Below are positions 5,551 to 35,679 of a DNA stretch of 64,000 nucleotides, one piece after another. Under the pieces are notes generated by a model. It was not told where the DNA came from. It saw only the letters and a list, made by a program, of their open reading frames with translations, and did not search any database. The stretch covers positions 1 through 64,000 of the forward strand of contig CAZFHY010000002.1 in assembly GCA_964519305.1 (NCBI GenBank), written 5' to 3'. Numbering within the stretch: the stretch's first letter is position 1; each line of letters opens with the position of its first letter. Source of the stretch: Candidatus Undinarchaeota archaeon (GTDB taxonomy: Archaea > SpSt-1190 > JASMDC01). The position numbers were made by a program, and so were the translations under genes.

Positions 5551-5560
5551 TTTTATATAT
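5551..5560 (+). promoter_or_regulatory. Putative TATA box (leaderless transcript)
   Basis: TTTTATATAT ending 26 nt before ATG 5586. Confidence 0.65.
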
Positions 5561-5585
5561 TGCACGCGCCTCCTCTTCTATCGAG

Positions 5586-14121: not shown

Positions 14122-14169
14122 AGCTCTATGGTCGGGGCTACGAATAAAAAGGCTGCGGTCAGGGATCGC

Positions 14170-17100
14170 CTACGATCCCGTGGGTAGGGTCAGGTCCCCT
14201 ATCTGCACCTTCAACGACCGACCGTCCTCCTTGGTGCTCACGGTAAGGAGCTTGGTGGTGGACACCTCGTAGTCCGGCAGCACTATCTCGAGGAAGTACT
14301 GCCCGACGTTGAAGCATGCCTTCTCGAGCTCGCCCGCCTTCTCGAACTTGGTCTCGAACGTTCCGTCACCGTACACCCGTGGCGAGGTCTCTGCGAACTT
14401 GACGTGCTCGGGGAAGGTGTACACGATCATGTCCATTGTCGTGTTCGAGATGATGATCGGCGGCGGCTCACGGAACATCTCGATGTAGAACGTACCCCAC
14501 AGGTTGCCCGATATGGTGATCTGGTTGCAGCAGAGCCCTCTGTACTCGCCGGTCTGCGGATCGGAGTTGGGATTGAGCGGGTCCCACTTCTGGTACCACT
14601 TGCTGTTGTCGATCGGCCTGCAGGAGAAGCCACAGACTCCCTTGTCCGGGTCCTCGTCTCCTTCGATACAGATGGACCTGCCGATCTCTCCGCCGGCGCA
14701 ATGCTTGGCCTTCGTGCAGAAGTCCGTGCACTTGTGGGATTCCACATCGCACACGAACGGATCGCACGTGAAGTTGGTGAGGGTGGCGGGCAGCCTCTCC
14801 TGGTCCCAGCAGAATCCGCGTCCCTTCTCATTGAGCTTGCACTGGTAGTTGATACCGAAGGCGTTGTATATGTTGATCTTGCCATTGTAGGTATCATTGT
14901 CCTCTTCGATGAGCTCGGTGGCGCACTTGTTGTACTCGTGGCCTTCGCAGTCAACCCAGTGGCCGATGCAGGTGGAACCGGAGCGCAGGTACTCGAACAC
15001 CCACGTGTCGCCCTCGGTGCGACATGTGTCGCGGTAGATACGCTTGGCGCATACGTTGTCGCTGCAGCCGAGATAGTCGATACACACACCGGGGGCCTTT
15101 GTATCGTCGCCACGGTCCGCGCCAGATAGGGACTTGCACGAGCCGTCCACGTTCTGCTCGTCCTCGGGGCAATCGGTCGCATCGGTGCGACACTGGACGG
15201 TCCTGCTCTCGTCGATATCGTACTCGCACTTGGCCGTACCCTTGGGGTTGGAGTCGACACAGCTACCGTCGAGGTATAGGAGGCGGTTGGTCCCGCCCTC
15301 CTCGCACCGGTGACCGTCGGCGCACGTCTGGATGGTCTTCCACACGTTGTTCTCGCACTTCCGTATGTCCTGCTGCTGGCCTGAGGCGATGCAGATCGTA
15401 ACGCCATGCGCGTAGCACTGGTTGTCCCACACGCAGTCGTTGGCCTTGTCGCAGCACGCGTCGTACTTGTTCATTGCGCCCGGTTCGAGGTCGGCCACTT
15501 CCTGGTCCACGTCGTTCTGTGTGTACGGGCCGTCCAGGTCCGTAGTGAAGAACTTGAGGTAGAACTCGTTGTTATCGTCGCCGCAGCAGGCCGTCTTGCC
15601 GTCGGGAGCGTCGCCGCCCAGGTTCCATGCGATGCCGAAGTCGCCCTGTGTCGTGGTCTTGTCGTTGAAGCAGTCAAGGCGACAGTACACAGACGGTGAG
15701 GCCACGCGTGTGATCGGGTCCTTGTTCGTGCCCTTCTTGTCGTCCCAGTCGACAGAGTAGAGCAGGAGGTCGGTCACGCGGTGACCGGGGTGCGATAGGC
15801 CGGCGCCGTTGGTTAGGAGGTCATTGTCGCTAGTAGGCACGTCGCCGAACCTGCGGTCCTTACGATCATCGCTCCACGCACCCTTCCGGTCCTTCTCGCC
15901 GTGGTAGGTGAAGGTCACGCTGGTCTTGTAGTCGCCCTCCCACCTGCAGTACCAGTTCTTCCAGTTCCAGGTGATGTCCGCGCTGGCGTAGCCTGTGGTC
16001 TTCGCTATCAGGTCGAGCGAAGTGATGCCAACGCTCGAGTCGGTGACCGTCTTTGTACATGTGCCCAGACCGTAGGTGTTCGAGCCGGACCGCGAGGTCA
16101 GGCCGCAGGACATGCCCTGGTCGGTGAACACCGTCGCGCCAGGCCGCTTGAAGGTGAGTGCAGAGGTGGTCTCGTAACCGCAGAAGTAGTAGTACTGCTG
16201 GTTGGTCTCGGCAGCGTTGATATAGGAGGAATCGATGTCCAGGTCACGGGTGCCGTCGTATCCCTCGAGCACGAAGTCCGTCTTGCCGTCATAAGTGCCA
16301 CCTGTCTTGCATCCATTGTAGGCGAGCGTGCAGGTGGCCTTGCAGGTGAGGCCGAGGAAGTCGGTGGAGTAGTAGGTGCAGGTCGAGGTGTCGCTGTTGT
16401 ACGGGTAGGAGCAGCTGGTGATGCCTGAGGCCACACCACAGTCCATGGCAGTGCAGGAGTAGTCCCTGCCCGCAGAGTTGCCGTCGAAGTAGGTCCCGTC
16501 CTGCCGGTCCTTGGGGCTCTGGATGTAGAGCTTAGCGGTCACCTTGGGCAGGCTCTTCCACACGCCCTGGTGGCAGTACTCGTTGAGACCGTCGCTGTCC
16601 ACGTCGCCCTCCCACTTGTCGTTGAAGCACTTGTTGTTGGCGATGCAGTCCGTGTACTCGTTGCAGCATGCCCTGTTGTTATCGGTGCTGGACTCGCACG
16701 CCTTCTTGGTACCTGGCTTCTCCTCGGAGCGGCAGTCGAGCATCCACTCGTTGTCGTCGTCACCGCAGCACTTCCCTATGTCGCCACCCTGCTCCCAGCC
16801 GATACCCTTGTCGAACGGCTTGGTGGCCGGTGGGGTGCGGTCGTCGAAGCAGCGCAGGTCACAGTACCGTGCCGGCTCGCGCCTGCCGTCGGGATCGAGG
16901 TTGACGTTGCCATCATCATCCCAGCTGACCTTGTACATCACGACCACCTTCTGCTGCGCGGTGATGCCGAGGGCGGGATCGTTGGCGTTGGGCGTGTTAT
17001 CGAACCTCCGGTCGCGGTCTAGGGCATGGCGGTTGTTCTCGCCATGGTACGAGAAGTCGACAGTGAGCGTGTAATCGCCCTCCTCGCGACAGTAGTGCTC

Positions 17101-20100
17101 GCGGTAGGTGCGTGCCCAGTTCCAGGTTGTGAGTGACGTCGAATAGGCGTCGATGTCGAAGTAGTTAGTACCGTCCGGTTTGAATATGTAGCCGCAGTGC
17201 GTGGTGCCCTGGTCGGAGTTGCCGTTGCGGAATGTGAGGTCGCAGGTCATGCCCGTATGGTCGATCACGCGGCCAGTGGGTTTGTCGATGGTGATGAGGG
17301 ACTCGGTCTCGTAACCGCAGAAGTAGTAGTACTGGTCATGCTCGACGACGTTGGCGTACTCGGTCTTGAGGCTGAACGACTCGGTGGGCGAGTTCCATCC
17401 CTGGTACGTGAACTCGACATGACCATCGTACGCACCGCCGACCGTGCACTCGTTGATATTGTAGGTGCACGTACCGATGCAGCTCACGCCGGTGAAGGTG
17501 GAGTAGAATGTGCAGATAACCTGGTTCCCTGAATCCGGGTAGGTGCACGACGTCGCACCACCGGGCACACCGCAGTTGAGAGCGGAGCACGTGATGTCTA
17601 CACTTTCCCTGATTGGCTTCTCTGGTGAGGCCACCCATATCTTGGCAGTCACCCGTGGCAGGTCCTTCCAGCTGCCCTGGTTGCAGTACTCATTGGCGCC
17701 GTCGCTGTCCACATCACCCTCCCACTTGTCGTCGTAGCACTTGTTGTTGGCCACACAGTCGGTGGTCTTGTCACAGCAGGCCACGTCCTGGACCTGGTCG
17801 CCCTTGCATGCCTTGACGCTGTGCTCCAGGCTCTTACAGTAGTGGATGAACTCGTTGGCATCGTCACCGCAGCACTTGTTGCGCGTACCGCCATCGTCGC
17901 CGCCTATGCCCCATGCGATACCGTCCTTGGAGCCGTCAAGGAGGTTGTTCTGCTCGTCGTTGGGCGTGGTGTCGCTCACGCACTTGGGCCCGCAGTACCT
18001 TGATGGATGGCTGCTGCCATCGGGTGCCTTGTTGGTGCTGAGCTCGTCGTCCCAGTTGACGTGGTAGAGGAACTTGTGTATCGTTTGCTGGGTAGCGGTG
18101 AGCGCGCTGCGGTCGAACATCCGACCCGTGTAGTAGTAGATGACGTCCGTGCTGTACTCGCCCTCGTGGCGACAGAACAGGTCGTTCTCGGTCCATGTCT
18201 GCGTGCCCGCCGTAGGCGAGGTCGACAAGGAGTCGATTGTCCAGAAGTGGGTGCCCGTATTGGCCGGGTCCTTGAACTGGTAAGAGCATGCTGTATTGCC
18301 GTTGGGCGTGTTGCCGAAGCGGTACGTGAGGGGACCGCACGTCATGTCCTGACCGGCGCGGATGGTGCCCACGGGCGTGTTGAACCACAGCTTTGCGGTG
18401 GCCGTGTAACCGCAGTAGTACCACATGTTCGCTGTTGGTCCGAGCGGCTGTGCGTAGGAGACCGGGTACACCCGGTCGCCCTTGTTCCGCTCGGTACCGC
18501 AAGGGATGTCGGTGAACAGGTACTCGGTGTAGCCGTAGTACCAGCCGCCTATCGTGCACTCATTGTAGCCGTAGAAGCACGGAGCCGTGCAGTCGATGCA
18601 GCCGAACAGGTAGTAGTCGCACGCCATCTCGTTCGCAGGCTCGTCATAGGTACACTGGTTGGAGCCGGAGATGGGGCCGCACATGACCGTACCACAGGTC
18701 ATGGAGTGGGCGTCCACGCGCTGGTTCTCTTGGTTCCAGATCCAGATCTTGGACGCGATACCGGGCATGTCCTTCCAGATACCCTCGTCGCAGAACTCGG
18801 GCATGTCATCGAAGTCAAGGTCCTCGGAGAACCCGTCGTCATAGCACTTATCATTGAAGATACAGTCGGAGTCCTGGTCGCAGCACGCCTTGTCGTCGGA
18901 GGAGTAAACACACAGGTTCACACCCGCCTTCTCTCGCGACACGCAGTGGGTGATCCAGTTGTCCGCGTCATCGCCACAGCACTGCGTATCGTCGCCGCCG
19001 ATGGCATGCTCGATACCACCATCGCCCGCCGTCTGGTCGTCGAAGCATGCCAGGTCGCACCAGTAGCCGTCCGACTGGTCCCAGTTAACCGTGAAGAGCT
19101 TCTCGGTATACTCCTGGCTGGTGGCGGTCAGGGCCGACATCTCACCTGGTGAGTTACCGAACATAGTGCCCGTGTAGGCGAACCGGACCTTTGCCGTATA
19201 GTCGCCCTCCTTGCGGCAGTACTTGGCCTTGCGGGTCTCGACGATGTCGGCCGACGGGGTCGGCGGCTTCTTGGGCGTGTACGATGTGGCTGTGAGGTCG
19301 AAGTAGTTGGTACCGTCGGGGTTGAATGCGTAGCCGCACACGGTCGTACCGTACGCATATCCGTTGTTGCGCATGGTGAGACCGCAGCTCGTAGCAGCGT
19401 TGTCGATGACAGTGGAGTCGGGATCGAACACCCACACGGTGGCCGTGGTCGTGTACCCGCAGTGGTAGTAGTTCTGCTCGCCGGTCACAAGGTATCTGGT
19501 GGCCTCGTCGAACGCCGCGGCGCCCATGTTCCAGCCAGTGTACTTGAAGTCCACATGACCGGTGTAGAGGCCACCTACTGTGCACATGTTGTAGCTGTAT
19601 GAGCAGGAACCAGTACACCATACGCCGCTGGCCTGGCTGAAGAACGTGCATTCGACCTTGTCGTTGCCGTTGTTGTATGCGCAGCTTGTAGTGCCGGCCG
19701 CCACGCCGCAGTCGACGTCCGTGCATGAGACAGTGGCGTCATTGACCTGGACCTTCTCCAGGTTCTGGATGGTGATCTTGGCGGTGACGATGGGCAGGTC
19801 GCGCCAGGTGCCCGCAGCACAGTATTCTTTGTGGCCATCGCCGTCCACATCGCCCTCCCACGCGTTGTTGTAGCAGACGTTCTGGTACAGGCAGTCGTTG
19901 CTCTGATCGCAGCAGGCAGTATCGTCCGTGGACACCGAGCAGGCATTGGAGCCCTGCTTCTCCTGTGACACGCAGTCGATCTTGTACTCGCTCCCGTCGT
20001 CCTGGCAGCAAAGGTGGCGGGTTCCGCCAACGCCGCCGATGTCCCAGTAGACGGTCTTACCGGTACACACCGTTGTGCAGTAGCGTTTGGTATCCCAGTT

Positions 20101-23100
20101 CACATTGTAGATCGTATCCCAACCGATGGTCTGGTCGCCAACCTGAGATGCCTTACCGTCGCATTCCTTGTTGAAGTAGAACTTCGTCTGGCTCTGCCAG
20201 TCCCCTTCCTCATCGCAGTGCGCCGTATCCACCCACTCGGTGGTACACGAGGCGTCGAGCTCCTTGTTGTCGTTGCTGGTGCACGCGCCCTTGTGACAGG
20301 TCATGAGCTTCCAGTTCTGCTTGATATTGCCGCTAGTCTTCGCACGGATCCGGTAGTATGCTGGCGAGCAGCGGTAGAGGTCGATGGGCCCGTGCCATTC
20401 CTCGGGAACAGCGGGCAGGTCGTTGCATGCTGGTGATTCGAAGGTGAACTTGGCCTTTGTCGTGTACTTACCAGCTACCTTGCACAGGGTGTAGTCCTTG
20501 CTGGGGCAGTTCAGGGACGAGATCTCGTTGGAGTTGGAGCAGAAGCCAAGCTGACCGGTACTGTGACACGCGAGGGCGCCACTGTTCCACTCCTTCCCGC
20601 CGCTGCCATCATACACGTAGTAGTCGACGCTGGCAGGCGAGCCCACGTAGCAGAAGAAGAGCTTGTTGCGGGTGAACTCCTCGGTCGCGGGCATGTTAGC
20701 TGAGTAGTCGCACCTCTTGCCTTCGTAGGTGTACTTGACGTTGCCCTTGTACCAGCCCTTCTCATCGCATGTATCGATGGGCTTGGCCACAGCGCAGGTG
20801 AGCAACCGGTCAGCAGCGTTGTTGCGCCGACGCGAACTGATACCGTTGGTATCGTGCCAGTTGATCTCCTGCAGGTCGCCGCCAGCGACGCAGCCGGTGG
20901 AGCATGTGCGGTCCGCCTGATAGGCCTTGCTCGTCTTCGGGCTGATGATCTTGTAGCGCACCTCGTCCGTGATGACGCAGTTGTACATGTTCACACGGCC
21001 GAAGACCGAGGTGGTGCTCGCTATCATGGGCGTGCTGTCGCAGTTGGCGCGGTCGTGATAGAGGGTACCCTCTGTCGAGTACCAGCCGGGCGCCAGGCAC
21101 TCGTAGAAGTCGTACGGGCACGACTGGCTCCGCTCGGTGTAACCGTTCTTGTTCGGACATGTGGATGAGCACTCGACGTTGTTGATCGTGTGGATCTTGC
21201 CGGCATAATCGTGGAAGATGCGTATCTGAGCGTACTCCGGGTTCTCCTTCCACACGCCGTTCTCGCACTTCTCCTTCGCCTTGTCGCCGTCAACGTCGGC
21301 ATTGTAGCCGTTGTTGTAGCAGCCGTTGTTGTACACGCAGTCGTTCTTGTCATTGCAGCAGGCAAGGTCATCTGCACCACGGTCGCAGGCGGTGGCCACT
21401 TCCTCGATGGTCTCGCAGAACCGGTACCACTCGTTGTTATCGTCACCGCAGCACTTGTTGCCGTGGACCTCACCACCGATGTTCCACACGATGCCCTTGT
21501 CCTTAGCTCCGGTGGTCCGGTCGTCGAAGCATGAGGCGGTGCAGTAGGTGCCCGAGTGGCCGTCCCATTCGATGTTGTATTCCTTCTTGGTAAGGTCCTG
21601 GTACGCGTCCTCGAGCGTCGTGCCGTCCCAGTTGTTACCGGCATAGTGGACACGGGCCTTGAAGTAGTGGTCGCCCTCGCGGTCGCACTGGCGCTTCTGG
21701 CCGCTCACGGTCACGTACCGGTCGGGATTCCAGCCAGAGTATGTGCACTCGACGTTCGCGTTGTGGTTCGTCGGATCCTTGGAGAACTGGTCGGCGGGGC
21801 AGCTGGCCCATTCACCGTTGACATAGTAGTGGCCGCCCACGTAGTAGTAGACCTGCATGGTCGTCGTGAGCGAGCAGGAGAATATCTTGCCACGGTCGAT
21901 CCAGATCGGATTGTTCTTGAAGTCCTTGTTGTAGCAGTTGCGGCCTGCGTGTTTGATCTCACCCTTGAGCGTGTAGTAGCCCTTGTTGCTCGAGCACACC
22001 GTCGTCTCGGGGATGGTGATCGTCGGGCACTCGCTCTTGAGCTCGTAGGCCTGACCGTTGTGCACGCAAGCGGTCGTGCAGTCCTTCTTACCCGAGTCCC
22101 AGGCCTGGCCGCCCTCTGGCTTGTATAGGCGGTAGTTCACCTTGTCGGTGATGGTGCAAGTGTAGAGGTTGTGCTTACTGATCGCCGAGGTCCCTCCAGG
22201 CACCATGGGCATGCCATCGCAGTTACCACGGTTATGGTTGATAGTGGCCTCTGCCTGGTAGGTACCGGGCACCAGGCACTCGTTGAAGTCGTAGGGACAC
22301 TCATGGGTCCGCTCCTTTCCACCCTCGGCGCATGTGTAGAGATCGACGATGTCGGTGCTCTCTGCGGCCTGTTTCTTGCATCCCGACTCGTCCGGATATG
22401 CGGGGAAGTCGAGACGTGCCTTTATCTTGCCCGCTACCGGGCAGGCCGTGTACTTGAACGCTGAGCAGGTTATGGTACGCTTTCCGCCAGAGCAGGTGAT
22501 GGAGCATTCGGGGTAGAACGTGTCGACGACGTTGTTGCTCTGGTCCATGATGCGCAACTTGATATCTCCAGCGCCTTCGGGTGGAGTAACGTAGCCGGAG
22601 GCACCGGGGCATGCAGAGGTACAGAGCACGTTATCGATGGTGTAGAACTTACCACCAGCGTTGTGGAATATCCGGATTTGAGCGTACTCGGGCGAGTCCT
22701 GCCATTTACCGCTCACGCACTTCTCCTTGGCGTAATCGTTATCGATATCGCCGCTCCACCCCGTGGCGTAGCAGTTCCCGTTGAACACACAGTCGGTGGA
22801 CTTGTCGCAGCACGCCAGGTTGTCCGACGAGCCGGCGCATCCGGCGCCCGCGTCCTGCTGGGTCTCGCACGTCCTGATGAACTCGTTGGCGTCATCCTCG
22901 CAGCACTTGGCCACATCGCCACCGATGTTGTACTTGTTCGAGCCGCAAGCGTTGCAGTAGGTGGCCGAATCGTCCTGGTCACGCCAGGTACCGGCCTGGC
23001 AGTACTCACCATTGTAGTCAGCCTCGTTGGAACCGGCGTGGTTTGTCTGTAGGCATGTGCCCTGTGAATAGCAGGTGTTGCCGTTGGTGCAGTCGTTGTT

Positions 23101-26100
23101 GTTGTTACAGCAGGCATCGGTACTATCGGCGTTGGACACCTTGCGGTACTCGCCAGCGTCGTCACCACAGCATTTATCGATCTCGCCACCGATATTGTAG
23201 TTTGTATTACCATGGCAGGCCTTGCAGTAGTTGGAGTTATCGTCAAGGTCCACCCAGGTTCCCGCCTTGCAGTATTCGCCGTTAGTGGCCGCGTCAGAGA
23301 GATGTAGCGACGTGTGCGCGCATCCGCTGTTAGCATAGCAGTTGTTGGCGAACACACAGTCGTCGGTCTTGTCACAGCAGGCATCGGTCGAGTCGGCGTT
23401 GTTGGTCCTACGGTACTCGTTGGCGTCGTCACCGCAGCAGAGGTGACGTGAGCCGCCGTCATTGGAGTGGATGCTCCACCACACGTCCTTGTTCACACAG
23501 TTCTTGTGACAGTAGTCCTTCGTGTCCCAGTTGACGGTGTACTGGGTCCGTGTCCGGGATTCTAAGAGGCTGTTACCCTGTATGGCCACGCCGTCCCAGT
23601 TCTTGCCCGTGAAGGTGTAGTCGACCTTAGTCTTGTAGTCGCCCTCGATACGGCAGTAGTTCTTGTTCCCGCCGATGGTGACGGACTTATCGGCTTCAGG
23701 CGTATATGACGTATACTTGCACTCGTGTTGGACACCTCCCTCGTCGCTGCTGGGATTGATAGCGATGACCTGCGGGCAGCTCATGGCCTTGTTATTGATG
23801 AAGTAATGGCCACCTACCCAGAACCATAGCTTGGCGTTGAGCACGAGCGAGCACGAGAACACCTTGAGGTTTGTCTTGTCGACCCAGCTGTTGGCGAACT
23901 TCAACGCTCCACCGTTGATACAGTTGTTGCCCACGTGGTTGATGTACGCGTTGGACGTGTAGTAACCGTTACGGCTGGAGCAGAAGTCGGCCCAGTTGAA
24001 GTTGTACGTCTGGCAGTTGGATTCCCTCGAGCCCGATGAGCACGACGCGTCGCACTCCTTCTCAGCGCTGCGGTGAGCGTAGGTGCTGGTACTGGGAGAC
24101 GTCGTGCCTGGTACGTAGAAGTAATACCTGATCTTGTCCTTGATGACACAGTTGTAGAGGTTGTGACGTGAGATGGCCGATGTCTTGCCTGTCTCGATCT
24201 TCGTACCATCGCAATTAAGACGCTTGTGCTCGATGTTGGTCTCGGCCTGGTACCAGCCGGGGATCTTGCACTCGTGGAAGTCGTACTTGCACTCGTGGTC
24301 CCGCTGTGTCTCCGATGCCGAGTTCGCGCAGGTCGAGCTGCACAGCACGCCTGTGAACTTGTGGAGCTGGGTGTTACCTGTGGCCTGATGGTAGATGCGG
24401 ATCTCGGCATACTCGGGCGCGTCCTGCCACACACCGTTGACGCACCACTCGATAGCGCCGTCAGAATCGATGTCGCCCTGCCATCCATTGTTCTTGCAAC
24501 TACCAAAGCCCACGCAATCCTTGTTGGAGTTGCAGCATGCCTTATTATCCCCATTGCACGCGTTCTTGATCTGCTCGTCGGAGGCACAGGTCCTGTACCA
24601 CTCGTTGTTGTCGTCACCACAGCATGAGGATGCGGCGATCTCGCCGCCAAGGTTCCAGGCAACACCGCTGTCCATGGCCCCGGTGGTCTTATCCGTAAAG
24701 CATGATGTCGAGCAGTAGGTTCCGGAGTGCCCGTCCCAGTTGACGTTGTAGAGCGTGGAAGTGAGGTCCTGGTAGGCGTTCTCGAGAGTACTTCCGTCCC
24801 AGTTCTTGCCTGCATAGTGGACCCTGACCTTCACGTTGTGATCGCCCTCACGGTCACACTGTCGCTTCTGTCCACCGGCGTTGACGTACTTGTCAGGGCT
24901 CCATCCCGTGTACGTGCACGCTACGTTCGCATTGTGGTTCGAAGGATCGTACGAGAACTGGTCGGTGGGGCAGGTCAGCCATTTGGCGTTGACGTAGTAG
25001 TGGCCGCCCACCCAGTACCACACCTGCATGGTCGTGTCCAGAGCGCATGAGAACGCCTGGCCGTAATTGAACCACTCGTTCTTTGCGTAGAAGTTGCCGT
25101 TATGGCAGTTGCGACCCGAGTACTCCATATAGGCCTTGGTGCTGTAGTAACCGTTACGCTTCGTACAGAATGACGTCTCGGGGACAGTTACCGACGGACA
25201 GTCCGTCTTGCGCTCGTACTTGTCGACCGGTTTGTGGCATACCGTGGAGCAGTCCTTCTTGGCGGACGTCCAGGCCTTGGTGCCGCTCGGATCGTAGGCG
25301 TAGTACGTAACATGATCGGTGATGACGCAATTGTAGAGGTTGTGTTTCCCGATGACCGAGGTCGTACCGGCCACCATAGCCTTCCCGTCGCAGTTGGGTC
25401 GGTTGTGGTTCACTGTGGTCTCGGCCTGGTACCATCCGGGGATGTAGCACTCGTAATAGTCGAACTTGCACTCCTGCTGTCGCTGTGCATAAGCGCCGGT
25501 GCCGGACGGACAGGTGGTCGTGCATGCGACATTGTTCTGGGTCTTGATGAGCCCGGCCGTCTCGTGATAGATGCGGACCTGTGAGTATTCCACAAGGTCC
25601 TGCCATGCCCCGTTGACGCACTTTTCCTGTGCCTTGTCACCGTCCGCATCCCCCGTCCAGCCGTTATCGTAGCAGTTTCCAAAGCTCACGCAGTCGTATC
25701 GTGCTTTGCAGCAGGCCTTGTTGTCACCGTTGCATGCGTTCTTGGTATCCTCGTTGGTCTCGCACGTGCGATACCACTCAGAGCCGTCATCACCGCAGCA
25801 GGAGGACGCTGCAGTCTCTCCACCGATGTTCCATGCTATACCGTTATCGTGAGCCCCGGTGGTCGTGTCGCTAACACAAGTGGGGTTACAGTAGGTGCCC
25901 GAATGCCCGTCCCATGCGACGTTGTACTGGGTGTTCGTCCAACTTTCCTTGAGGTGGGATCCGCCGTGGAGGTTGCTGCCGTCCCAGTTCTTGCCCGAGA
26001 AGGTGTACTCTACCTTGGCGATATAGTCGCCCTCCTTCTGACAGTAGCGTTTCTGTCCGCCGACGTCGACAAAGGTGCCTGCAGGCGGGGTCCAGGCCGT

Positions 26101-29100
26101 GTATGTGCACGCGTGTTCCACCGCGTCGTTCTTGGCCGGGTTGTGTGAGTACGTCTTGGGGCAGGTCATGGCCTTTGCGTTGACGAAGTAGTGGCCGCCC
26201 ACGTAGAACCATGTCTTGGCAGACGCTGTTAGCGAGCACGAGAACACCTTGAGGTTGGTGTTATCGGACCAGCTCGTAGTGTGCTTGAGCGCCTGACCGT
26301 TCACGCATGAGTGTCCGTTATGCACATATCGGGCATTGAGCGAGTAGTAGCCGTACCCGTGAGCATTGTTGCACAACGCAGCCTCGTCGATGGCCACACC
26401 ACCACAGTCCACCTGGTACGTACCGCTGGAGCAGGACACAGGACACGTCATTGACTTGGACCACACCCGCTTGCTGCTGGAGGTCGTGGGCGATGTCACA
26501 CCGGGTTTGAAGACGTAATAGGTCACGTCGTCGTTGACAGTGCACTGGAAGAGGTTGTGGCGGCTGATGGACGACTGCTTGCCGATGTCCACCTTGGCAC
26601 CGTCGCACTCGGTACGCTTGTGATCGATAGTGGTTTCGGCTTGGTACCATCCGGGGATCTTGCATCCTGAGCTGGAATACGTGACGGGGCACTCGTGGTA
26701 CCTTTGGGTCTCCGAAGATGTACCGGAGCAGGAGTTAGTGCTGCAGAGCACGTTATTGAAGGTCTTGATGACGTTATTGCCGGTATGCTGGTGGTAGATA
26801 CGGATCTGCGCGTACTCGGGCGCATCCTGCCACACACCGTTAACGCAGTACTCGATGGCACCATCACTATCAGCGTCCACCTGCTTGCCGTTGTTGTAAC
26901 AGCTCCCGAACGATACACAGTCCTTCTGGGCATTGCAGCAGGCCTTGTTATCGCCATTGCATGCGTTCTTGATGGTCTCGTCAGTGGCGCATGTCCGATA
27001 CCACTCACTGCCATCGTCGCCGCAACAAGTGGTCGCCGCGGTCTCGCCGCCGAGGTTCCATCCCATACCACTGTCCAAGGATCCCGTTGTCTGGTCTGTA
27101 CGACACGAAGTGGAGCAGTAGGTACCGGAATGTCCGTCCCAGTTGACGTTGTAAAGGGTATTGGAAAGACTGTCGGACGTTACGCCCAGGTTAGTCCCAT
27201 CCCAGTTCTTTCCCGAGTAGGAGACCGTGACGGTCATCACATGGTCCCCCTCTTTATCGCACTGTCGCTTCTGTCCACTAACGGTGACGTACTTATTGGG
27301 GCTCCAGCCCGAGTATGTGCAATCAATGACCGCGCCGTTGTTCGCGGGATCGTGGGAGAACTGGTCGGATGGACAGCTCATCGCTTTATTTGAGAAGTAG
27401 GTGTGGCTGCCGCCCTTGTAGGTGACCTTCATAGCTGTGTCCAGACCGCAGGAGAACGCCTTCACGTTGGTGTTGTCCGACCAGCTGGTAGTGTGATGTA
27501 GCGCACTACCGGTCTTGCACGAGTACCCTTTGTGCTGGATGCGACTGTTGACGGTATAGAATCCGCTACGGCTGGAGCAGATCGCTGCCTCGGGAACGTT
27601 GTAGCCAGGACAGGACGAAGTGTACACCTGGTCTGACGGGCATGATGCAGGACAGTCCACGTCCTTCTTGTGGGAATACCCGCTGGTCTTGGGTGCCGTC
27701 ACACCTGGCGGGTACACGTAGTAGGAGCCCTTGTCGATGATGTTGCAGGTGAACAGGTCGTGCTTGCCTATCTGGGATGGGGTGCTCGCCGCCATGGGCA
27801 GTCCGCTGCAGGTGGGGCGGTTGTGGTCCAGGGTAACCTCGGCCTGGTACTTACCGGGGATCTTGCACCCCGAGCTGGAGTACGTCCATGAGCACACCTG
27901 GTAGCTCTGAGCTTCCCCGCTCGTTCCGCTCGGACATGAGGTAGTGCACTCAACACTGTTCTGGGTGTGGAGAAGGCCCACTGTCGCATGGGACACACGG
28001 ATCTGCGCGTACTCCTTGACGTCCTCCCAGGTACCGCTATTGCACTTTTCTGTGGCCTTATCTCCGTCCGCGTCGCCCTGCCAGCCATTGGCATAGCAGT
28101 TGTTCTTGGATACACAGTCCGTCTTGTGGGAGCAGCACGCGACCCCGTCACCGCTGCACGCGTTCTTGACCAGTTCGTTCGAGGTGCAGGTGCGGTACCA
28201 CTCCCCGCCATCGTCACCGCAGCAGGTCGTGGAGGCCGTCTCGCCGCCGAGGTTCCAGCCGACACCACTGTCACCAGATGTCTTGTCGTTGAAGCAGGTG
28301 GTGGTGCAGTATGTACCGGAATGGCCGTCCCAGTTGACGTTGTACTTGGTTACTGTTAGCGACTCCTTGAGGTGTGAACCGCCGTGGAGGTTCGAGCCGT
28401 CCCAGTTCTTGCCGGAGAAGGTGAAGTCGACCTTGGTATTGTAATCCCCCTCCTTCTCACAGTAACGCTTCTCGCCACCCACGGTGACGTAGGTGCCTGC
28501 CGGAGGCGTCCAGGCGCTATATGTGCACGAGTGGAGCCCGACGTCCCCCTTGGATGCGTCGTACTCGGCGATGACATCAGGACAGGTCATGGCCTTTTTG
28601 TTGATGAAGTAGTGACTGCCCACGTAGAACGACACTTTTGCGGACATGTCCAGGCCGCAGGAGAACGCCTTCACGTTCGTGTTGTCCACCCAGCTGTTCT
28701 TGACGTAGAGGTTACCGCCGTTGATGCACGATTGTCCCTTGTGCTGGATGTAGGTGTTGACTGAATACCAGCCGCCTGTGTTGGCGCAGATGGCCGGTTT
28801 GTCGATGGTGACCGTGGGACAGGTCGAGGTGTACACCTTGTCAGAGGGACAGGAGGCCGTGCAGTCCACGTCCTTCTTCCAGGCATACCCGCTGGTCTTG
28901 GGGTTGGTGACCCCCGGCGGGTAAACGTAGTAGGTACCCTTGTCCTTGATATCGCATGTGAACAGGTCATGCTTCGTGACCGAACTGGTGCCCCCCACGA
29001 CGCCTGACGCCTTGCCGTCGCATTCGGGCATTGCGTGAGTGACCGTGGCCTCGGCCTTGTACTTGCCTGGGATAGTGCAGCCCGACTTGGGATAGGAATA

Positions 29101-29937
29101 GGAGCAATCAGTTTGCCGCTGGCAGTTCTCGGTGGTGCATGGGCACGAGGTGGTGCACTTGATGTTGTTGATGGTCTTGATGAGGCCTGCTGTTTCGTGA
29201 TAGATCTTGATCTGTCCGAACTCGGGGCACTCGTATATCTTTTTTGTGAAGTAGCTGGTGGTCCCCTGCGATGGCTGGCCATCGCACTCGTTCCGGCCGT
29301 GCTGGACGGTGATCCTGGCCTCCACCATCCCGGGGCCTTTACACGAATTGTAGGTGTGGGTGAAGGTGGACTCCGCCTGGCAGTTTGTTCCGGTGCATGG
29401 ACAGGTGCGACCTGCCTCCACTACCGCCGTATCCCGATGGGTACCAAGGCCGTCGTAGTACTTGATCGTGGCGATGTCGTTGCATTCATACAGGTTACTG
29501 ATGCTGGTGACAGAGGTGCCTCCTTGGGTGCTCTTCCCGTCGCACTCTTTGCTGGAGTGCGTGACCGTTAACCGGCCCTTGACCCAACCAGGCGTGGTGC
29601 AGGTCCTTGGGTAATTGTAACTGGTCTCGCAGTACCGCTGGCAGTTGACACCGGTACACGGGCACGAGCAGGAGATGGGGACGCTGTTGATGGTCTTGAT
29701 GACATTGTTATTCCGGTCGAGGAGCTCTAGCTTCGCCGTATCCGAAATGGCAGGCTGGACGGCGAGGACAACGAGGAAAGCGGTGAGAATGAAGAGGGAT
29801 GCGAGTGAGATTGCGGGTCGTGCGCTGGCGGCACGAGCCTGCAGGAGGGCGTACAAGCGGTGAGATAGAGGACGACCTAGAAAAACCTGGCTAACACTGG
29901 TCTTGCTATTAAGGAGTTGCACTTGCCTCCCTACCAT
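14170..29937 (-). CDS. Giant (5255 aa) secreted cysteine-rich repeat protein, putative adhesin/surface filament
   Basis: Single 15.8-kb ORF with an N-terminal hydrophobic segment (SLASLFILTAFLVVLAVQPA). 13 CC(G/E/Q)DD motifs, 11 C-x-x-EG(D/E)(Y/H/W) motifs, 10 DxDxD-type loops. No C-terminal TM anchor. Confidence 0.92.
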   Translation of the reverse strand: MVGRQVQLLNSKTSVSQVFLGRPLSHRLYALLQARAASARPAISLASLFILTAFLVVLAVQPAISDTAKLELLDRNNNVIKTINSVPISCSCPCTGVNCQRYCETSYNYPRTCTTPGWVKGRLTVTHSSKECDGKSTQGGTSVTSISNLYECNDIATIKYYDGLGTHRDTAVVEAGRTCPCTGTNCQAESTFTHTYNSCKGPGMVEARITVQHGRNECDGQPSQGTTSYFTKKIYECPEFGQIKIYHETAGLIKTINNIKCTTSCPCTTENCQRQTDCSYSYPKSGCTIPGKYKAEATVTHAMPECDGKASGVVGGTSSVTKHDLFTCDIKDKGTYYVYPPGVTNPKTSGYAWKKDVDCTASCPSDKVYTSTCPTVTIDKPAICANTGGWYSVNTYIQHKGQSCINGGNLYVKNSWVDNTNVKAFSCGLDMSAKVSFYVGSHYFINKKAMTCPDVIAEYDASKGDVGLHSCTYSAWTPPAGTYVTVGGEKRYCEKEGDYNTKVDFTFSGKNWDGSNLHGGSHLKESLTVTKYNVNWDGHSGTYCTTTCFNDKTSGDSGVGWNLGGETASTTCCGDDGGEWYRTCTSNELVKNACSGDGVACCSHKTDCVSKNNCYANGWQGDADGDKATEKCNSGTWEDVKEYAQIRVSHATVGLLHTQNSVECTTSCPSGTSGEAQSYQVCSWTYSSSGCKIPGKYQAEVTLDHNRPTCSGLPMAASTPSQIGKHDLFTCNIIDKGSYYVYPPGVTAPKTSGYSHKKDVDCPASCPSDQVYTSSCPGYNVPEAAICSSRSGFYTVNSRIQHKGYSCKTGSALHHTTSWSDNTNVKAFSCGLDTAMKVTYKGGSHTYFSNKAMSCPSDQFSHDPANNGAVIDCTYSGWSPNKYVTVSGQKRQCDKEGDHVMTVTVSYSGKNWDGTNLGVTSDSLSNTLYNVNWDGHSGTYCSTSCRTDQTTGSLDSGMGWNLGGETAATTCCGDDGSEWYRTCATDETIKNACNGDNKACCNAQKDCVSFGSCYNNGKQVDADSDGAIEYCVNGVWQDAPEYAQIRIYHQHTGNNVIKTFNNVLCSTNSCSGTSSETQRYHECPVTYSSSGCKIPGWYQAETTIDHKRTECDGAKVDIGKQSSISRHNLFQCTVNDDVTYYVFKPGVTSPTTSSSKRVWSKSMTCPVSCSSGTYQVDCGGVAIDEAALCNNAHGYGYYSLNARYVHNGHSCVNGQALKHTTSWSDNTNLKVFSCSLTASAKTWFYVGGHYFVNAKAMTCPKTYSHNPAKNDAVEHACTYTAWTPPAGTFVDVGGQKRYCQKEGDYIAKVEYTFSGKNWDGSNLHGGSHLKESWTNTQYNVAWDGHSGTYCNPTCVSDTTTGAHDNGIAWNIGGETAASSCCGDDGSEWYRTCETNEDTKNACNGDNKACCKARYDCVSFGNCYDNGWTGDADGDKAQEKCVNGAWQDLVEYSQVRIYHETAGLIKTQNNVACTTTCPSGTGAYAQRQQECKFDYYECYIPGWYQAETTVNHNRPNCDGKAMVAGTTSVIGKHNLYNCVITDHVTYYAYDPSGTKAWTSAKKDCSTVCHKPVDKYERKTDCPSVTVPETSFCTKRNGYYSTKAYMEYSGRNCHNGNFYAKNEWFNYGQAFSCALDTTMQVWYWVGGHYYVNAKWLTCPTDQFSYDPSNHNANVACTYTGWSPDKYVNAGGQKRQCDREGDHNVKVRVHYAGKNWDGSTLENAYQDLTSTLYNVNWDGHSGTYCSTSCFTDKTTGAMDSGVAWNLGGEIAASSCCGDDNNEWYRTCASDEQIKNACNGDNKACCNSNKDCVGFGSCKNNGWQGDIDSDGAIEWCVNGVWQDAPEYAEIRIYHQATGNTQLHKFTGVLCSSTCANSASETQRDHECKYDFHECKIPGWYQAETNIEHKRLNCDGTKIETGKTSAISRHNLYNCVIKDKIRYYFYVPGTTSPSTSTYAHRSAEKECDASCSSGSRESNCQTYNFNWADFCSSRNGYYTSNAYINHVGNNCINGGALKFANSWVDKTNLKVFSCSLVLNAKLWFWVGGHYFINNKAMSCPQVIAINPSSDEGGVQHECKYTSYTPEADKSVTIGGNKNYCRIEGDYKTKVDYTFTGKNWDGVAIQGNSLLESRTRTQYTVNWDTKDYCHKNCVNKDVWWSIHSNDGGSRHLCCGDDANEYRRTNNADSTDACCDKTDDCVFANNCYANSGCAHTSLHLSDAATNGEYCKAGTWVDLDDNSNYCKACHGNTNYNIGGEIDKCCGDDAGEYRKVSNADSTDACCNNNNDCTNGNTCYSQGTCLQTNHAGSNEADYNGEYCQAGTWRDQDDSATYCNACGSNKYNIGGDVAKCCEDDANEFIRTCETQQDAGAGCAGSSDNLACCDKSTDCVFNGNCYATGWSGDIDNDYAKEKCVSGKWQDSPEYAQIRIFHNAGGKFYTIDNVLCTSACPGASGYVTPPEGAGDIKLRIMDQSNNVVDTFYPECSITCSGGKRTITCSAFKYTACPVAGKIKARLDFPAYPDESGCKKQAAESTDIVDLYTCAEGGKERTHECPYDFNECLVPGTYQAEATINHNRGNCDGMPMVPGGTSAISKHNLYTCTITDKVNYRLYKPEGGQAWDSGKKDCTTACVHNGQAYELKSECPTITIPETTVCSSNKGYYTLKGEIKHAGRNCYNKDFKNNPIWIDRGKIFSCSLTTTMQVYYYVGGHYYVNGEWASCPADQFSKDPTNHNANVECTYSGWNPDRYVTVSGQKRQCDREGDHYFKARVHYAGNNWDGTTLEDAYQDLTKKEYNIEWDGHSGTYCTASCFDDRTTGAKDKGIVWNIGGEVHGNKCCGDDNNEWYRFCETIEEVATACDRGADDLACCNDKNDCVYNNGCYNNGYNADVDGDKAKEKCENGVWKENPEYAQIRIFHDYAGKIHTINNVECSSTCPNKNGYTERSQSCPYDFYECLAPGWYSTEGTLYHDRANCDSTPMIASTTSVFGRVNMYNCVITDEVRYKIISPKTSKAYQADRTCSTGCVAGGDLQEINWHDTNGISSRRRNNAADRLLTCAVAKPIDTCDEKGWYKGNVKYTYEGKRCDYSANMPATEEFTRNKLFFCYVGSPASVDYYVYDGSGGKEWNSGALACHSTGQLGFCSNSNEISSLNCPSKDYTLCKVAGKYTTKAKFTFESPACNDLPAVPEEWHGPIDLYRCSPAYYRIRAKTSGNIKQNWKLMTCHKGACTSNDNKELDASCTTEWVDTAHCDEEGDWQSQTKFYFNKECDGKASQVGDQTIGWDTIYNVNWDTKRYCTTVCTGKTVYWDIGGVGGTRHLCCQDDGSEYKIDCVSQEKQGSNACSVSTDDTACCDQSNDCLYQNVCYNNAWEGDVDGDGHKEYCAAGTWRDLPIVTAKITIQNLEKVQVNDATVSCTDVDCGVAAGTTSCAYNNGNDKVECTFFSQASGVWCTGSCSYSYNMCTVGGLYTGHVDFKYTGWNMGAAAFDEATRYLVTGEQNYYHCGYTTTATVWVFDPDSTVIDNAATSCGLTMRNNGYAYGTTVCGYAFNPDGTNYFDLTATSYTPKKPPTPSADIVETRKAKYCRKEGDYTAKVRFAYTGTMFGNSPGEMSALTATSQEYTEKLFTVNWDQSDGYWCDLACFDDQTAGDGGIEHAIGGDDTQCCGDDADNWITHCVSREKAGVNLCVYSSDDKACCDQDSDCIFNDKCYDDGFSEDLDFDDMPEFCDEGIWKDMPGIASKIWIWNQENQRVDAHSMTCGTVMCGPISGSNQCTYDEPANEMACDYYLFGCIDCTAPCFYGYNECTIGGWYYGYTEYLFTDIPCGTERNKGDRVYPVSYAQPLGPTANMWYYCGYTATAKLWFNTPVGTIRAGQDMTCGPLTYRFGNTPNGNTACSYQFKDPANTGTHFWTIDSLSTSPTAGTQTWTENDLFCRHEGEYSTDVIYYYTGRMFDRSALTATQQTIHKFLYHVNWDDELSTNKAPDGSSHPSRYCGPKCVSDTTPNDEQNNLLDGSKDGIAWGIGGDDGGTRNKCCGDDANEFIHYCKSLEHSVKACKGDQVQDVACCDKTTDCVANNKCYDDKWEGDVDSDGANEYCNQGSWKDLPRVTAKIWVASPEKPIRESVDITCSALNCGVPGGATSCTYPDSGNQVICTFYSTFTGVSCIGTCTYNINECTVGGAYDGHVEFTYQGWNSPTESFSLKTEYANVVEHDQYYYFCGYETESLITIDKPTGRVIDHTGMTCDLTFRNGNSDQGTTHCGYIFKPDGTNYFDIDAYSTSLTTWNWARTYREHYCREEGDYTLTVDFSYHGENNRHALDRDRRFDNTPNANDPALGITAQQKVVVMYKVSWDDDGNVNLDPDGRREPARYCDLRCFDDRTPPATKPFDKGIGWEQGGDIGKCCGDDDNEWMLDCRSEEKPGTKKACESSTDNNRACCNEYTDCIANNKCFNDKWEGDVDSDGLNEYCHQGVWKSLPKVTAKLYIQSPKDRQDGTYFDGNSAGRDYSCTAMDCGVASGITSCSYPYNSDTSTCTYYSTDFLGLTCKATCTLAYNGCKTGGTYDGKTDFVLEGYDGTRDLDIDSSYINAAETNQQYYYFCGYETTSALTFKRPGATVFTDQGMSCGLTSRSGSNTYGLGTCTKTVTDSSVGITSLDLIAKTTGYASADITWNWKNWYCRWEGDYKTSVTFTYHGEKDRKGAWSDDRKDRRFGDVPTSDNDLLTNGAGLSHPGHRVTDLLLYSVDWDDKKGTNKDPITRVASPSVYCRLDCFNDKTTTQGDFGIAWNLGGDAPDGKTACCGDDNNEFYLKFFTTDLDGPYTQNDVDQEVADLEPGAMNKYDACCDKANDCVWDNQCYAHGVTICIASGQQQDIRKCENNVWKTIQTCADGHRCEEGGTNRLLYLDGSCVDSNPKGTAKCEYDIDESRTVQCRTDATDCPEDEQNVDGSCKSLSGADRGDDTKAPGVCIDYLGCSDNVCAKRIYRDTCRTEGDTWVFEYLRSGSTCIGHWVDCEGHEYNKCATELIEEDNDTYNGKINIYNAFGINYQCKLNEKGRGFCWDQERLPATLTNFTCDPFVCDVESHKCTDFCTKAKHCAGGEIGRSICIEGDEDPDKGVCGFSCRPIDNSKWYQKWDPLNPNSDPQTGEYRGLCCNQITISGNLWGTFYIEMFREPPPIIISNTTMDMIVYTFPEHVKFAETSPRVYGDGTFETKFEKAGELEKACFNVGQYFLEIVLPDYEVSTTKLLTVSTKEDGRSLKVQIGDLTLPTGS

Positions 29938-30059
29938 ATCCCTACGTTTACGTAAAGTCTACAATCTTGATGCTAGTCGAACACACCTCCAAATTAGTAT
30001 CCGGACTATAATACTATAGCGCTTCGTGGATATAAACATTGCGTCAGAGGCCAGTTATT

Positions 30060-34704: not shown

Positions 34705-35679
34705 ATGCGCATCGTCTCGCCCCTCAACACGGCCACCGAGGTTGACGCCCTCGTCGATGCCGGGGCCAACGAGTTCTATGCTGGACTGCTCCCTGCCACA
34801 TGGAAGGAGCGGTTCTCCCACTGCTCGCCCATCAATCGCCGGGAATGGCCGCAGTCCAACTTCGCAACTGCCGAGGAGCTGGGCAAGGCGATCGAGCGGG
34901 CACACGAGCGTGGCGCCCCGGTGAACCTTACCATGAACGCCCAGTACTACACACAGGGTCAGTATCCAGTTGTGCTCAAGGAGCTGGAGCGAGCGCTTGA
35001 TCTGGGGATCGACGCGCTCATCGTCGGGGACATTGGGCTCATGCTCACCCTACGCGAGCAGGGCGTCCCTGCACGGCTCCATGTGAGCACCGTGGGGACC
35101 ACTTTCAACTCGCGTACGGCAAAGTTGTACGAAGAGCTCGGTGCCGCGCGCCTGGTAATCCCTCGCCACTTCACCCTGCCTGAGCTGGAACGCCTGCGCG
35201 CTTCCACCTCTCTGGAGCTCGAGTTGTTCATCATCAACGCCCTTTGTAGCTTCATTGACGGGCTCTGCACGTTCCAGCATGCTTTGGACGTGGAGGGCTA
35301 TCCCGACCTCTATCTTGGTCCTGAAGGATGCCACGCATGCCGCCTCACTTATGAGGTGGAGGCACATGGACCTGAGGCCGAGACCGCAAGAAAGCACTAT
35401 CGTGGATGGAAGTCACTGCTCACCGAGGGCAACTGCCACTTCTGCGGAGCATGCGCTATCTGGGAACTGGACCGCATCGGTATGGACAGTGTCAAGATAA
35501 TCGGACGTATCCACGACACGGAGCGAAAACTGCGCGACCTTTCTCTTATCGCGTGGGCCCGTGACCTGCTGGCAGAGGGACTTACCAAGAAGGACTTTAT
35601 CGAACGGGTGACGGCGCGATATGCAGAAGTGTACGACTTCCCCTGCGAACAGCGATGCTACTACCCTACGGCGGTGTAA
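34705..35679 (+). CDS. U32 family 'peptidase' (UbiU/TrhP-like Fe-S hydroxylase family)
   Basis: GANEFYAG, DALIVGDIG, HVST, RLVIPRH, ELFI...C...GLC, CRL, CGAC, KIIGR. Confidence 0.88.
   Translation: MRIVSPLNTATEVDALVDAGANEFYAGLLPATWKERFSHCSPINRREWPQSNFATAEELGKAIERAHERGAPVNLTMNAQYYTQGQYPVVLKELERALDLGIDALIVGDIGLMLTLREQGVPARLHVSTVGTTFNSRTAKLYEELGAARLVIPRHFTLPELERLRASTSLELELFIINALCSFIDGLCTFQHALDVEGYPDLYLGPEGCHACRLTYEVEAHGPEAETARKHYRGWKSLLTEGNCHFCGACAIWELDRIGMDSVKIIGRIHDTERKLRDLSLIAWARDLLAEGLTKKDFIERVTARYAEVYDFPCEQRCYYPTAV

Follow-up and report, generated by a model that had tools for sequence, protein, structure and literature searches.

What kind of protein does a 15.8-kb archaeal open reading frame (ORF) made of cysteine-rich repeats encode, and where on the cell would it act? 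The question is raised by the window analysed here, the 64,000 nucleotides of contig CAZFHY010000002.1 (positions 1 to 64,000, forward strand) from a Candidatus Undinarchaeota archaeon (assembly GCA_964519305.1), which contains the gene for a repeat protein that we call the giant. On balance we judge the giant to be a secreted, disulfide-rich, probably Ca2+-binding surface fibre whose body is free of N-glycans, most likely an adhesin-type appendage, and its predicted domain order points to a new architecture of giant modular archaeal surface protein. The coordinates of the giant, of its parts and of the other loci considered are given in Table 1.

Table 1. Parts of the giant and related or neighbouring features. 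Positions refer to the window unless preceded by G000, which marks other contigs of the same genome.
Feature	Position (nt)	Residues	Strand	Remarks
Giant gene	14170..29937		-	One ORF, 5255 aa, predicted secreted, 579 kDa, pI 5.0, 6.6% Cys
N-terminal hydrophobic segment	29767..29823	39-57	-	Followed by AVQPAISDTA; probable Sec signal
Two extra ~90-aa Cys-containing beta modules	29224..29754	62-238	-	Self-BLAST; 14 Cys
Class A units 1-5	23221..29223	239-2239	-	Self-BLAST; 392-409 aa, 26-28 Cys each
Two extra short CCGDD modules, tandem	22687..23220	2240-2417	-	89 aa, 10 Cys each
Insert of beta-module type, 104 aa	22375..22686	2418-2521	-	Self-BLAST
Class A unit 6	21235..22374	2522-2901	-	Self-BLAST, unit searches
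Divergent 481-aa unit	19792..21234	2902-3382	-	CCQDD module at end; 34 Cys
Four class B units	15370..19791	3383-4856	-	343-394 aa, 20-24 Cys; a CCGDD module ends each
Unique Cys-rich C-terminal tail	14173..15369	4857-5255	-	399 aa, 28 Cys
Reference CCGDD module	26809..27141	933-1043	-	Folded alone
Module cores 1-7	28006-28272, 26809-27075, 25582-25848, 24406-24672, 23221-23487, 22954-23220, 22687-22953		-	
Module cores 8-13	21235-21501, 19792-20058, 18763-19029, 17656-17922, 16552-16818, 15370-15636		-	
CCGDD paralogue	G000 C15:53115-61331		-	2738 aa; same signal peptide; C-terminal membrane anchor, basic tail
Tail homologue	G000 C15:61464-62426		-	320 aa, own signal peptide; 26% identity over 315 aa; directly upstream of paralogue
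DsbA-like protein	G000 C9:94070-95947			N-terminal membrane helix, tandem DsbA/Thioredoxin_4 domains
DsbA-like protein	G000 C18:66983-69265			N-terminal membrane helix, tandem DsbA/Thioredoxin_4 domains
DsbA-like protein	G000 C3:80544-82952			N-terminal membrane helix, DsbA/Thioredoxin_4
Membrane protein, C-terminal PRC-barrel	12088..14121		-	677 aa; starts 48 nt past the giant's stop
Protein with ~8 membrane helices	10689..12107		-	472 aa; overlaps PRC-barrel gene by 20 nt; no family match
FlaI/TadA-like secretion ATPase	1045-3348		+	NCBIfam FlaI 1.9e-30, under cut-off
Polytopic membrane protein, ~8 helices	3353-5533		+	726 aa; faint T2SSF (E 0.09, 14 bits)
p951, secreted protein	5478-8333		+	951 aa; Sec-like signal, then EEVD-like motif conserved in family
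p658	8194-10170		+	658 aa; 19 of 21 family members have R-[GA]-Q + hydrophobic helix
Family B DNA polymerase	30060-32537		-	
Radical SAM protein	33307-34665		+	
U32 peptidase-family protein	34705-35679		+	

The giant is rich in T, G, D, S and N, contains 348 cysteines, and is organised around the motif CC(G/E/Q)DD, which occurs 13 times, at residues 572, 971, 1380, 1772, 2167, 2256, 2345, 2829, 3310, 3653, 4022, 4390 and 4784 (first codon bases 28224, 27027, 25800, 24624, 23439, 23172, 22905, 21453, 20010, 18981, 17874, 16770 and 15588). In 2000 shuffles of the sequence it appeared 0.021 times on average and at most once. An initial annotation made from the sequence alone had listed the same 13 motifs by the low ends of their 15 nt, with the first five about 1.2 kb apart, and both statements hold: successive motifs are separated by 399, 409, 392, 395, 89, 89, 484, 481, 343, 369, 368 and 394 residues. 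Unit boundaries were drawn by self-BLAST in 200-aa tiles together with searches using single units; the self-comparison revealed the unit structure and returned the number of large units, about 11, that had been proposed. From the predicted fold of unit 2, a class A unit consists of three beta-sandwiches and one CCGDD module of about 110 aa. The two short tandem modules, joined to the module that ends class A unit 5, make a run of three. The number of cysteines per unit ranges from 20 to 34 and is even in most units, and no membrane helix was found in the C-terminal tail.

The module pattern put forward in the initial annotation, W-x-x-GG...CCGDD..E...CC...DC...CY...DxDxDG..E.C..G.W.D, matches the alignment of all 13 copies, in which C17, C18, D20, D21, C46, C47, D52, C53, C59 and C77 are invariant. 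A 62-row alignment that includes modules from other phyla retains C330, C331, D333, D334, C359, C360, C366, C372 and C390 without exception, and the family as a whole can be recognised by a stretch of about 90-110 aa carrying W-N-x-G-G-E, CCGDD..E, ACC, DC, CY and a final C..G.W. The earlier reader had recognised none of the repeats as a named family, and this agrees with our searches, in which the giant was scanned as two halves: NCBIfam gave no matches, and Pfam gave a single one, zf-FCS, at 22.6 bits against a cut-off of 22.4. We take the zf-FCS match as spurious, since it barely exceeds the cut-off and no single stretch passes alone. Nothing of note was found in the tail and the N-terminal modules with Pfam at E<=5, and no Pfam adhesin repeat covering the units over their full length, the finding that would have spoken against a new repeat, was seen.

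A profile built from the 13 copies was searched against 1.84 billion representative proteins and matched 410 representative proteins or clusters at E<=1e-3, 173 at E<=1e-10 and 29 at E<=1e-30, so that the taxonomic survey proposed earlier shows a module widespread beyond its own genome. The best 150 of the 410 have a median length of 1093 aa (at least 1000 aa in 89 and at least 3000 aa in 12) and a median cysteine content of 7.1%; at least three CC.DD motifs occur in 85 of them, and an N-terminal hydrophobic segment is present in 99 of the 136 that start with methionine. No Pfam family covered the module in any of 32 matches scanned, although these contained Laminin_G_3, TIG, LTD, DUF2341, fn3, Y_Y_Y, Big_13, CarboxypepD_reg and Peptidase_C1 (papain-type) domains elsewhere, and CARDB, LRR and pentaxin domains were found in a second set of family members. 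Where a matching protein is named, the name is either "hypothetical" or taken from another domain, and a full-text literature search by the spelling CCGDD found no paper that names the module. The CCGDD module, defined here by the profiles designated A1 and A3, is a genuine, as yet unnamed, family.

The module was confirmed at 73 loci, counting one genome per species and using the taxa as labelled in the sequence records. The archaeal loci belong to the same-genus relative in the Undinarchaeales (5), Woesearchaeota (20), Aenigmatarchaeota (10), Nanoarchaeota (6), Pacearchaeota (1), Altiarchaeota (2), unspecified archaea (13) and records labelled uncultured Methanosarcinales (7). The nine bacterial loci comprise two in Gracilibacteria, two in one Deltaproteobacteria metagenome-assembled genome (MAG), and one each in Myxococcota, Spirochaetes, Aminicenantes, Gammaproteobacteria and an unclassified bacterium. 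Whole-genome searches of 40 relatives turned up the module in the congener, in 6 of 15 further members of the class and in none of 24 more distant archaea; in the giant's own genome, marginal rows aside, only the giant and the 2738-aa paralogue carry it. By this survey the module occurs mostly in giant, predicted secreted proteins of DPANN archaea. The rest of the giant is far more restricted. When the retrieved members of the 77 loci L012-L088 were searched by tblastn, clear matches to the beta modules, to the tail and to the N-terminal modules came only from the same-genus relative (L016-L020), the one weak row outside the genus being a tail match in L078 (E 5.5e-6). A word-based search with the beta part of class A unit 2 had no match among proteins of 507-2000 aa, a negative of little weight. 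Since the module is widespread and the other parts were found only in the congener, the giant may be regarded as a lineage-specific architecture assembled around a shared module.

Modelled alone with an alignment of 82 rows, the reference module is predicted to be compact and made of short hairpins (pLDDT 89.9, pTM 0.82). Foldseek searches of the PDB and of the BFVD viral structures with this model gave nothing at E<=1e-3; the PDB rows were partial matches of 32-40 residues to VWC, FN1 and mucin structures at E 0.4-9, which is insignificant. A VIA scan of 48,161 representative chains returned the MUC2 C-terminus (Z 2.7) as the single chain with Z of at least 2, a PDB sequence search with the module profile had no match at E<=1, and the ESM Atlas gave no usable match to one module. 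We therefore recognise no clear solved relative of the predicted module, though such negative results fall short of proving a new fold. The whole class A unit 2 was modelled from the 62-row alignment, which contains paralogous and orthologous units as well as modules from other phyla, and gave pLDDT 84 and pTM 0.59, with all-beta domains at 1-91, 91-189 and 188-295 followed by the compact cysteine module. The VIA rows for the unit were FN3/Ig-like at Z 4.6-5.5, a range common by chance; Foldseek against the PDB with the whole unit gave no row at E<=1e-3, its arrestin and adhesin rows, SiiE (2yn3) among them at E 0.43, being insignificant; and no fn3 match was found in the giant with Pfam. The beta modules may therefore be Ig/FN3-type beta-sandwiches, an assignment of low certainty. 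Of the three or four Cys-bridged, beta-rich modules per unit that the initial annotation had described, the model supplies three beta-sandwiches and the cysteine module, while the bridges themselves are predicted from the cysteine pattern; likewise the structural search suggested at the time yields beta-sandwiches and a compact cysteine module, and no match at E<=1e-3.

A second property of the giant, which together with the wide occurrence of the module is new beyond the initial annotation, is the absence of sequons (N-x-S/T, where x is not P; expected numbers calculated from composition). Residues 58-4856 contain none where 56.3 are expected, and none of 2000 shuffled versions had fewer than 34 (mean 56.4); all three sequons of the giant lie in the tail, where 2.8 are expected. 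The control motifs [ST]-x-N (58 found, 61 expected) and N-x-[AG] (65 and 56) occur normally, and D-x-[ST] is raised (94 and 72). Genome-wide, the observed-to-expected ratio (O/E) of sequons is 1.03 in 1501 ORFs of at least 300 aa; among ORFs of at least 1000 aa it is 0.67 in the 61 with at least 3% Cys and 1.68 in the 30 with less than 1.5% Cys. The genome encodes a homologue of STT3/AglB that scores above the Pfam cut-off. A fragment of the congeneric orthologue (P0002, 3260 aa) has no sequons where 37.7 are expected, and the paralogue has five where 25.4 are expected, all at residue 2106 or beyond, near its C-terminal membrane anchor. We read this pattern as selection keeping the repeat body free of N-glycans, which would imply that the body passes the glycosylation machinery, and so that it is exported.

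Sequon use among the other module proteins (P0002-P0151) is bimodal, with a median O/E of 1.01 in the 111 proteins for which at least eight sequons are expected. P0002, P0006, P0029, P0076, P0117 and P0139 have zero or one sequon where 9-38 are expected, while others are enriched two- to four-fold, such as P0106 (4.2-fold) and P0079 (3.0-fold).

Export is also suggested by the N-terminus. The hydrophobic segment at residues 39-57 is the only one in the giant, and the paralogue shares both the segment and the motif that follows it, AVQPA[IV]SDTA. A class III (pilin-type) signal, [KR]-[GA] ahead of a hydrophobic helix, was considered and rejected by eye, because the N-terminus reads SARPAISLASLF, with P after R. 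Three DsbA-like proteins with CPFC or CPYC sites are encoded in the genome, all with a membrane helix, so that extracytoplasmic disulfide formation is plausible, and VKOR was not found in this genome, which is 99.8% complete. Given these proteins, the 10 cysteines of each short module and the mostly even counts per unit, disulfides in the giant are likely. A quite different use of the cysteines would be as ligands of Zn, Fe or Fe-S centres, in a matrix outside the cell that binds metal or has a redox function in anoxic water. The 348 cysteines, the vicinal CC pairs and the invariant acidic residues fit such a role, and so does a low-oxygen habitat, which is suggested by the seawater and marine metagenomes that contain the stretch and by related MAGs from anoxic water, as described in PMC10936187. 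We nevertheless consider this quite improbable, because the cysteine counts are those that pairing predicts, CxxC and CxxCH-type motifs are absent from the module consensus, the AF2 model is a confident compact knot formed with no cofactor, and the DsbA-like oxidoreductases are at hand.

The case for calcium is more qualified. The initial annotation had placed a DxDxDG loop at the close of each unit; a loop D-x-D-x-[DN], followed by G and ..E, does lie 50 to 55 residues beyond the CC in 10 of the 13 modules, but it is missing in canonical form from those at residues 2167, 2256 and 4784, the last of these being the final class B module, and it is optional in the family, where D.[DN].[DN] follows 199 of 511 CC.DD motifs (150 members). 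The constant acidic feature of the module is CCGDD..E. Loops of the DxDxDG type are Ca2+ sites, as in EF-hand-like proteins and thrombospondin type 3 repeats, and Ca2+ binding by the giant, like its actual disulfides and the stiff rod or filament shape envisaged earlier, is proposed here. That structural interpretation is plausible and in part supported.

Comparison with two relatives suggests which end of the giant faces outwards. Eleven neighbouring proteins are 84-94% identical to their counterparts in the congener. The giant itself is 90.9% identical over its last 1295 residues and 86% over residues 2935-3936, falling to 66% over residues 1869-3262 and to 48-71% over the N-terminal 1000 or so residues, where the two proteins are also offset by about 230 residues, which points to the gain or loss of modules. 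Within the tail, residues 4857-5095 are 92% identical to the relative's locus. In the giant's own genome the paralogue is anchored in the membrane at its C-terminus. Because of this anchor, near which the five sequons of the paralogue lie, and the far greater divergence of the N-terminal half, we suggest that the C-terminal end of the giant is proximal to the cell and that the class A half is exposed and fast-changing.

The same comparison bears on the possibility that the giant is a contact-dependent delivery fibre, with the repeat body as a stalk and the tail as a payload or tip that acts on another cell. The tail is separable, being fused to the body in the giant and encoded as a 320-aa protein with its own signal peptide in the paralogue locus, and it is unlike the body in sequon content. 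However, relaxing Pfam to E<=5 gave the tail no match to a toxin, an enzyme or any other family, and the C-terminal 1295 residues that include it are the most conserved of the stretches compared, in contrast to variable payloads. The giant is followed by two genes for membrane proteins and by no small immunity-like gene, and we consider delivery improbable.

More weight attaches to the idea that the giant is a structural part of the envelope, such as a sheath, canopy or matrix polymer that associates with itself laterally or end to end and is no adhesin for a foreign surface. Glycan-free surfaces would allow tight packing of protein against protein, and the body is free of sequons in a genome whose large, cysteine-poor ORFs are sequon-enriched as described above. 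The only structural echoes of the module, all weak, come from polymer-forming proteins (VWC, mucin and VWF modules), and much of the genome is given to large proteins: 88 ORFs of at least 1200 aa, by our own ORF calls, fill 14.2% of its 3.63 Mb, and 57 of them have at least 3% Cys. Those echoes are insignificant, though, with Foldseek E of at least 0.4 and a VIA Z of 2.7. One would not expect a housekeeping lattice protein to drop to 48-71% identity between congeners where its neighbours show 84-94%, and the module occurs in just two proteins of the genome. We see the envelope role as unlikely.

That the gene might be an assembly chimera or a decaying pseudogene was also considered. The gene is one ORF on the minus strand, and it runs for 15.8 kb with no internal stop. 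The DNA repeats inside it share no more than about 88% identity and include no long exact copies. Contigs from four public runs in two studies tile positions 13000-31000 with no differences, indels or joints; since the source sample may be part of either study, the tiling does not confirm the gene structure independently. No single contig from the runs covers the whole gene, and the contigs of all four break exactly at 24241-24275 and 25964-25999, the sole graph breaks common to all. These sites are words of 35 and 36 nt identical to the paralogue (C15:58614 and C15:60073), which renders a k=31 graph ambiguous at both; the shared words may have been conserved by chance or may have been left by gene conversion between the two genes. 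The congeneric assembly has its orthologue split over several contigs, but the fragment P0002 is collinear across both ambiguous words, and gene order is kept on either side of the giant in the congeneric genome. The sequon-free body, over about 4.8 kb-equivalents of protein, shows ongoing selection. With modest repeat identity, a tiling free of differences and an orthologue collinear at both breaks, an artefact is unlikely, and we regard a chimera or pseudogene as very improbable.

Returning to the secreted adhesin-type fibre, we propose the following model. The host would be an uncultured marine archaeon with a large genome (3.6 Mb), from a DPANN-affiliated group, that exports the giant by Sec. 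The exported chain would fold into about 50 small domains in series, in which Ig/FN3-like beta-sandwiches are interrupted every 350-400 residues by a CCGDD cysteine knot of about 110 aa. The membrane-anchored DsbA-like oxidoreductases would make the disulfides, and the D-x-D-x-D-G-x-x-E loop and the acidic cluster CCGDD..E would bind Ca2+, giving a long, mechanically stable stalk that should measure some 150-200 nm when extended. Selection would keep the repeat body free of N-glycans. The conserved C-terminal part would sit near the cell, as the paralogue is anchored at that end, and the fast-evolving N-terminal class A units would form the exposed, interacting end.

Several observations weigh against this model or limit it. 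We found in the giant no binding domain of known specificity with Pfam or NCBIfam, and no C-terminal anchor, PGF-CTERM-like end or wall-binding domain. The polarity and the adhesive role are proposals, and the gradient of identity could reflect turnover of repeats by recombination and not selection on a binding face. Avoidance of sequons is not a trait of the module family, whose 150 proteins together give an O/E of 1.13, with individual values between 0 and 4.2. Ca2+ cannot be essential to the fold of the module, because the loop is missing in three of the 13 copies and in most family members. The pTM of 0.59 for the class A unit leaves the geometry between its domains open in the model. Finally, production of the giant is predicted from its gene, and no RNA dataset is among the public runs listed as containing the stretch.

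The giant shares features with several known systems. SiiE and the LapA/RTX adhesins of bacteria are secreted by type I systems, are not known to contain cysteines, bind Ca2+ at the linkers between their Ig domains, which may stiffen the chain, and attach cells to surfaces. Like them, the giant is a long series of small, predicted beta-sandwich domains with acidic candidate Ca2+ sites; unlike them, it has an N-terminal signal, 348 cysteines and an acidic loop inside a separate cysteine module. It was not assigned to the RTX or type I-secreted adhesins, as there is no HemolysinCabind, BIg or similar Pfam match and an N-terminal hydrophobic signal is present instead. The VWC, FN1 and mucin-VWF families also place a small cysteine-rich hairpin module inside giant extracellular proteins, but they are eukaryotic, their cysteine pattern differs and the structural likeness is partial and insignificant. 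With EF-hand and thrombospondin type 3 loops the giant shares the form D-x-D-x-D-G-x-x-E, acidic at position 9, which 10 of its 13 modules carry; it differs from thrombospondin type 3 repeats in having one loop per module of about 110 aa and no run of loops, and there is no TSP_3 or EF-hand Pfam match. An S-layer glycoprotein was likewise considered and not adopted, there being no sequon in the body where 56 are expected and no C-terminal helix.

Closest by description are the SPEARE giants of Nanohaloarchaeota, such as the 9,409-aa SVXNc_0300, which, according to the paper that describes them, have a Sec signal and tandem arrays of Ig/fibronectin-like domains and are proposed to act in cell contact (PMC10266531). 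The same text describes them as membrane-anchored with a VirB4/TraG-like ATPase domain (PMC10266531). As far as these descriptions go, a DPANN-type host, an N-terminal signal and a multi-thousand-residue ectodomain with Ig/FN-like domains are common to both. The giant differs from that description in having neither an ATPase nor another Pfam domain, no C-terminal helix, and 6.6% Cys with a recurring CCGDD module; with no ATPase domain and no hydrophobic segment beyond residues 39-57, it was not classed as a SPEARE-type protein.

Around the giant lie genes that may be connected with it. Because the PRC-barrel gene starts 48 nt after the giant's stop, the two are probably co-transcribed, and the gene for the 472-aa protein is probably in the same operon as the PRC-barrel gene. 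Both downstream genes are single-copy and kept in the congener, where the PRC-barrel protein is 88% identical. Converging on these two genes is a set of four encoding the FlaI/TadA-like ATPase, the 726-aa membrane protein, p951 and p658, which looks like a divergent type IV pilus-like operon. The 726-aa protein was not accepted as a pilus platform protein on its T2SSF row, and the R-[GA]-Q and hydrophobic helix of p658 we take to be the class III signal pattern of archaeal pilins. No genuine match to p951 or p658 came from Pfam or NCBIfam, PDB sequence searches with both returned 0, and p658 had only three close relatives, all unnamed, in a large protein collection. In this genome p951 has 22 family members and p658 has 21, forming 21 adjacent pairs, and there are four Peptidase_A24 homologues. 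An ORF of at least 1200 aa lies within 300 nt of 11 of the 21 pairs (random-placement mean 5.0, maximum 13 in 1000 trials) and within 5 kb of 16 (mean 7.9, maximum 16). We treat the pairs as a lead on how giants are mounted, not as evidence about this giant.

Taken to its furthest, this lead would make the module a structurally new Ca2+-binding disulfide knot that marks the giants of DPANN archaea and a few ultra-small bacteria, and the giant, in a 3.6-Mb relative of symbionts with genomes below 1 Mb, a fibre whose whole repeat body is strongly selected to escape N-glycosylation, within a lineage-specific, pilin-dependent mounting system. In that system dozens of giant cysteine-rich proteins would be encoded beside 21 cassettes, each of a pilin-like p658 of about 600 aa and a secreted p951 of about 950 aa. 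We hold this combined proposal only tentatively and doubt that it is right in all its parts; if true, it would mean that giant proteins are mounted on an archaeal cell in a type IV pilin-dependent manner.

Other features of the genome are recorded here. ORFs of at least 1000 aa number 113 and make up 16.4% of it; a 4130-aa ORF on another contig (C11) is 15.4% Cys, and the longest ORF encodes 8378 aa. Genomes of same-class relatives measure 0.6-1.2 Mb, against 3.6 Mb here, and a report on oxygen-deficient zones describes DPANN MAGs of about 4 Mb with methanogenesis genes among DPANN otherwise of about 1 Mb (PMC10936187). Within the window, the DNA polymerase adjoining the giant has clear family B Pfam domains but stays far under all NCBIfam equivalog cut-offs, its best row, the pol2 superfamily, reaching 119.8 bits against a cut-off of 240, and is a divergent PolB. 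The radical SAM protein has the HMPTM N-terminal zinc ribbon of the methanopterin-type methyltransferase family, its gene adjoins that of the U32 peptidase-family protein, and its presence would fit a lineage whose C1 metabolism depends on methanopterin.

DPANN archaea and other ultra-small microbes are believed to cling to their partners by giant surface proteins, and almost none of the building blocks of such proteins have been named or solved. The CCGDD module offers a clean definition of a widespread, unnamed domain and is a candidate for the family databases. The sequon-free body would be a rare case in which the sequence by itself reveals strong selection to keep an exported archaeal protein from being N-glycosylated, and the contrast between none of 56 expected sequons here and up to four-fold enrichment in relatives raises the question of bare as opposed to coated archaeal fibres. 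That a large-genome lineage among sub-1-Mb relatives has 14-16% of its DNA in giant ORFs bears on how, in this region of the archaeal tree, genome size is related to the complexity of the cell surface.

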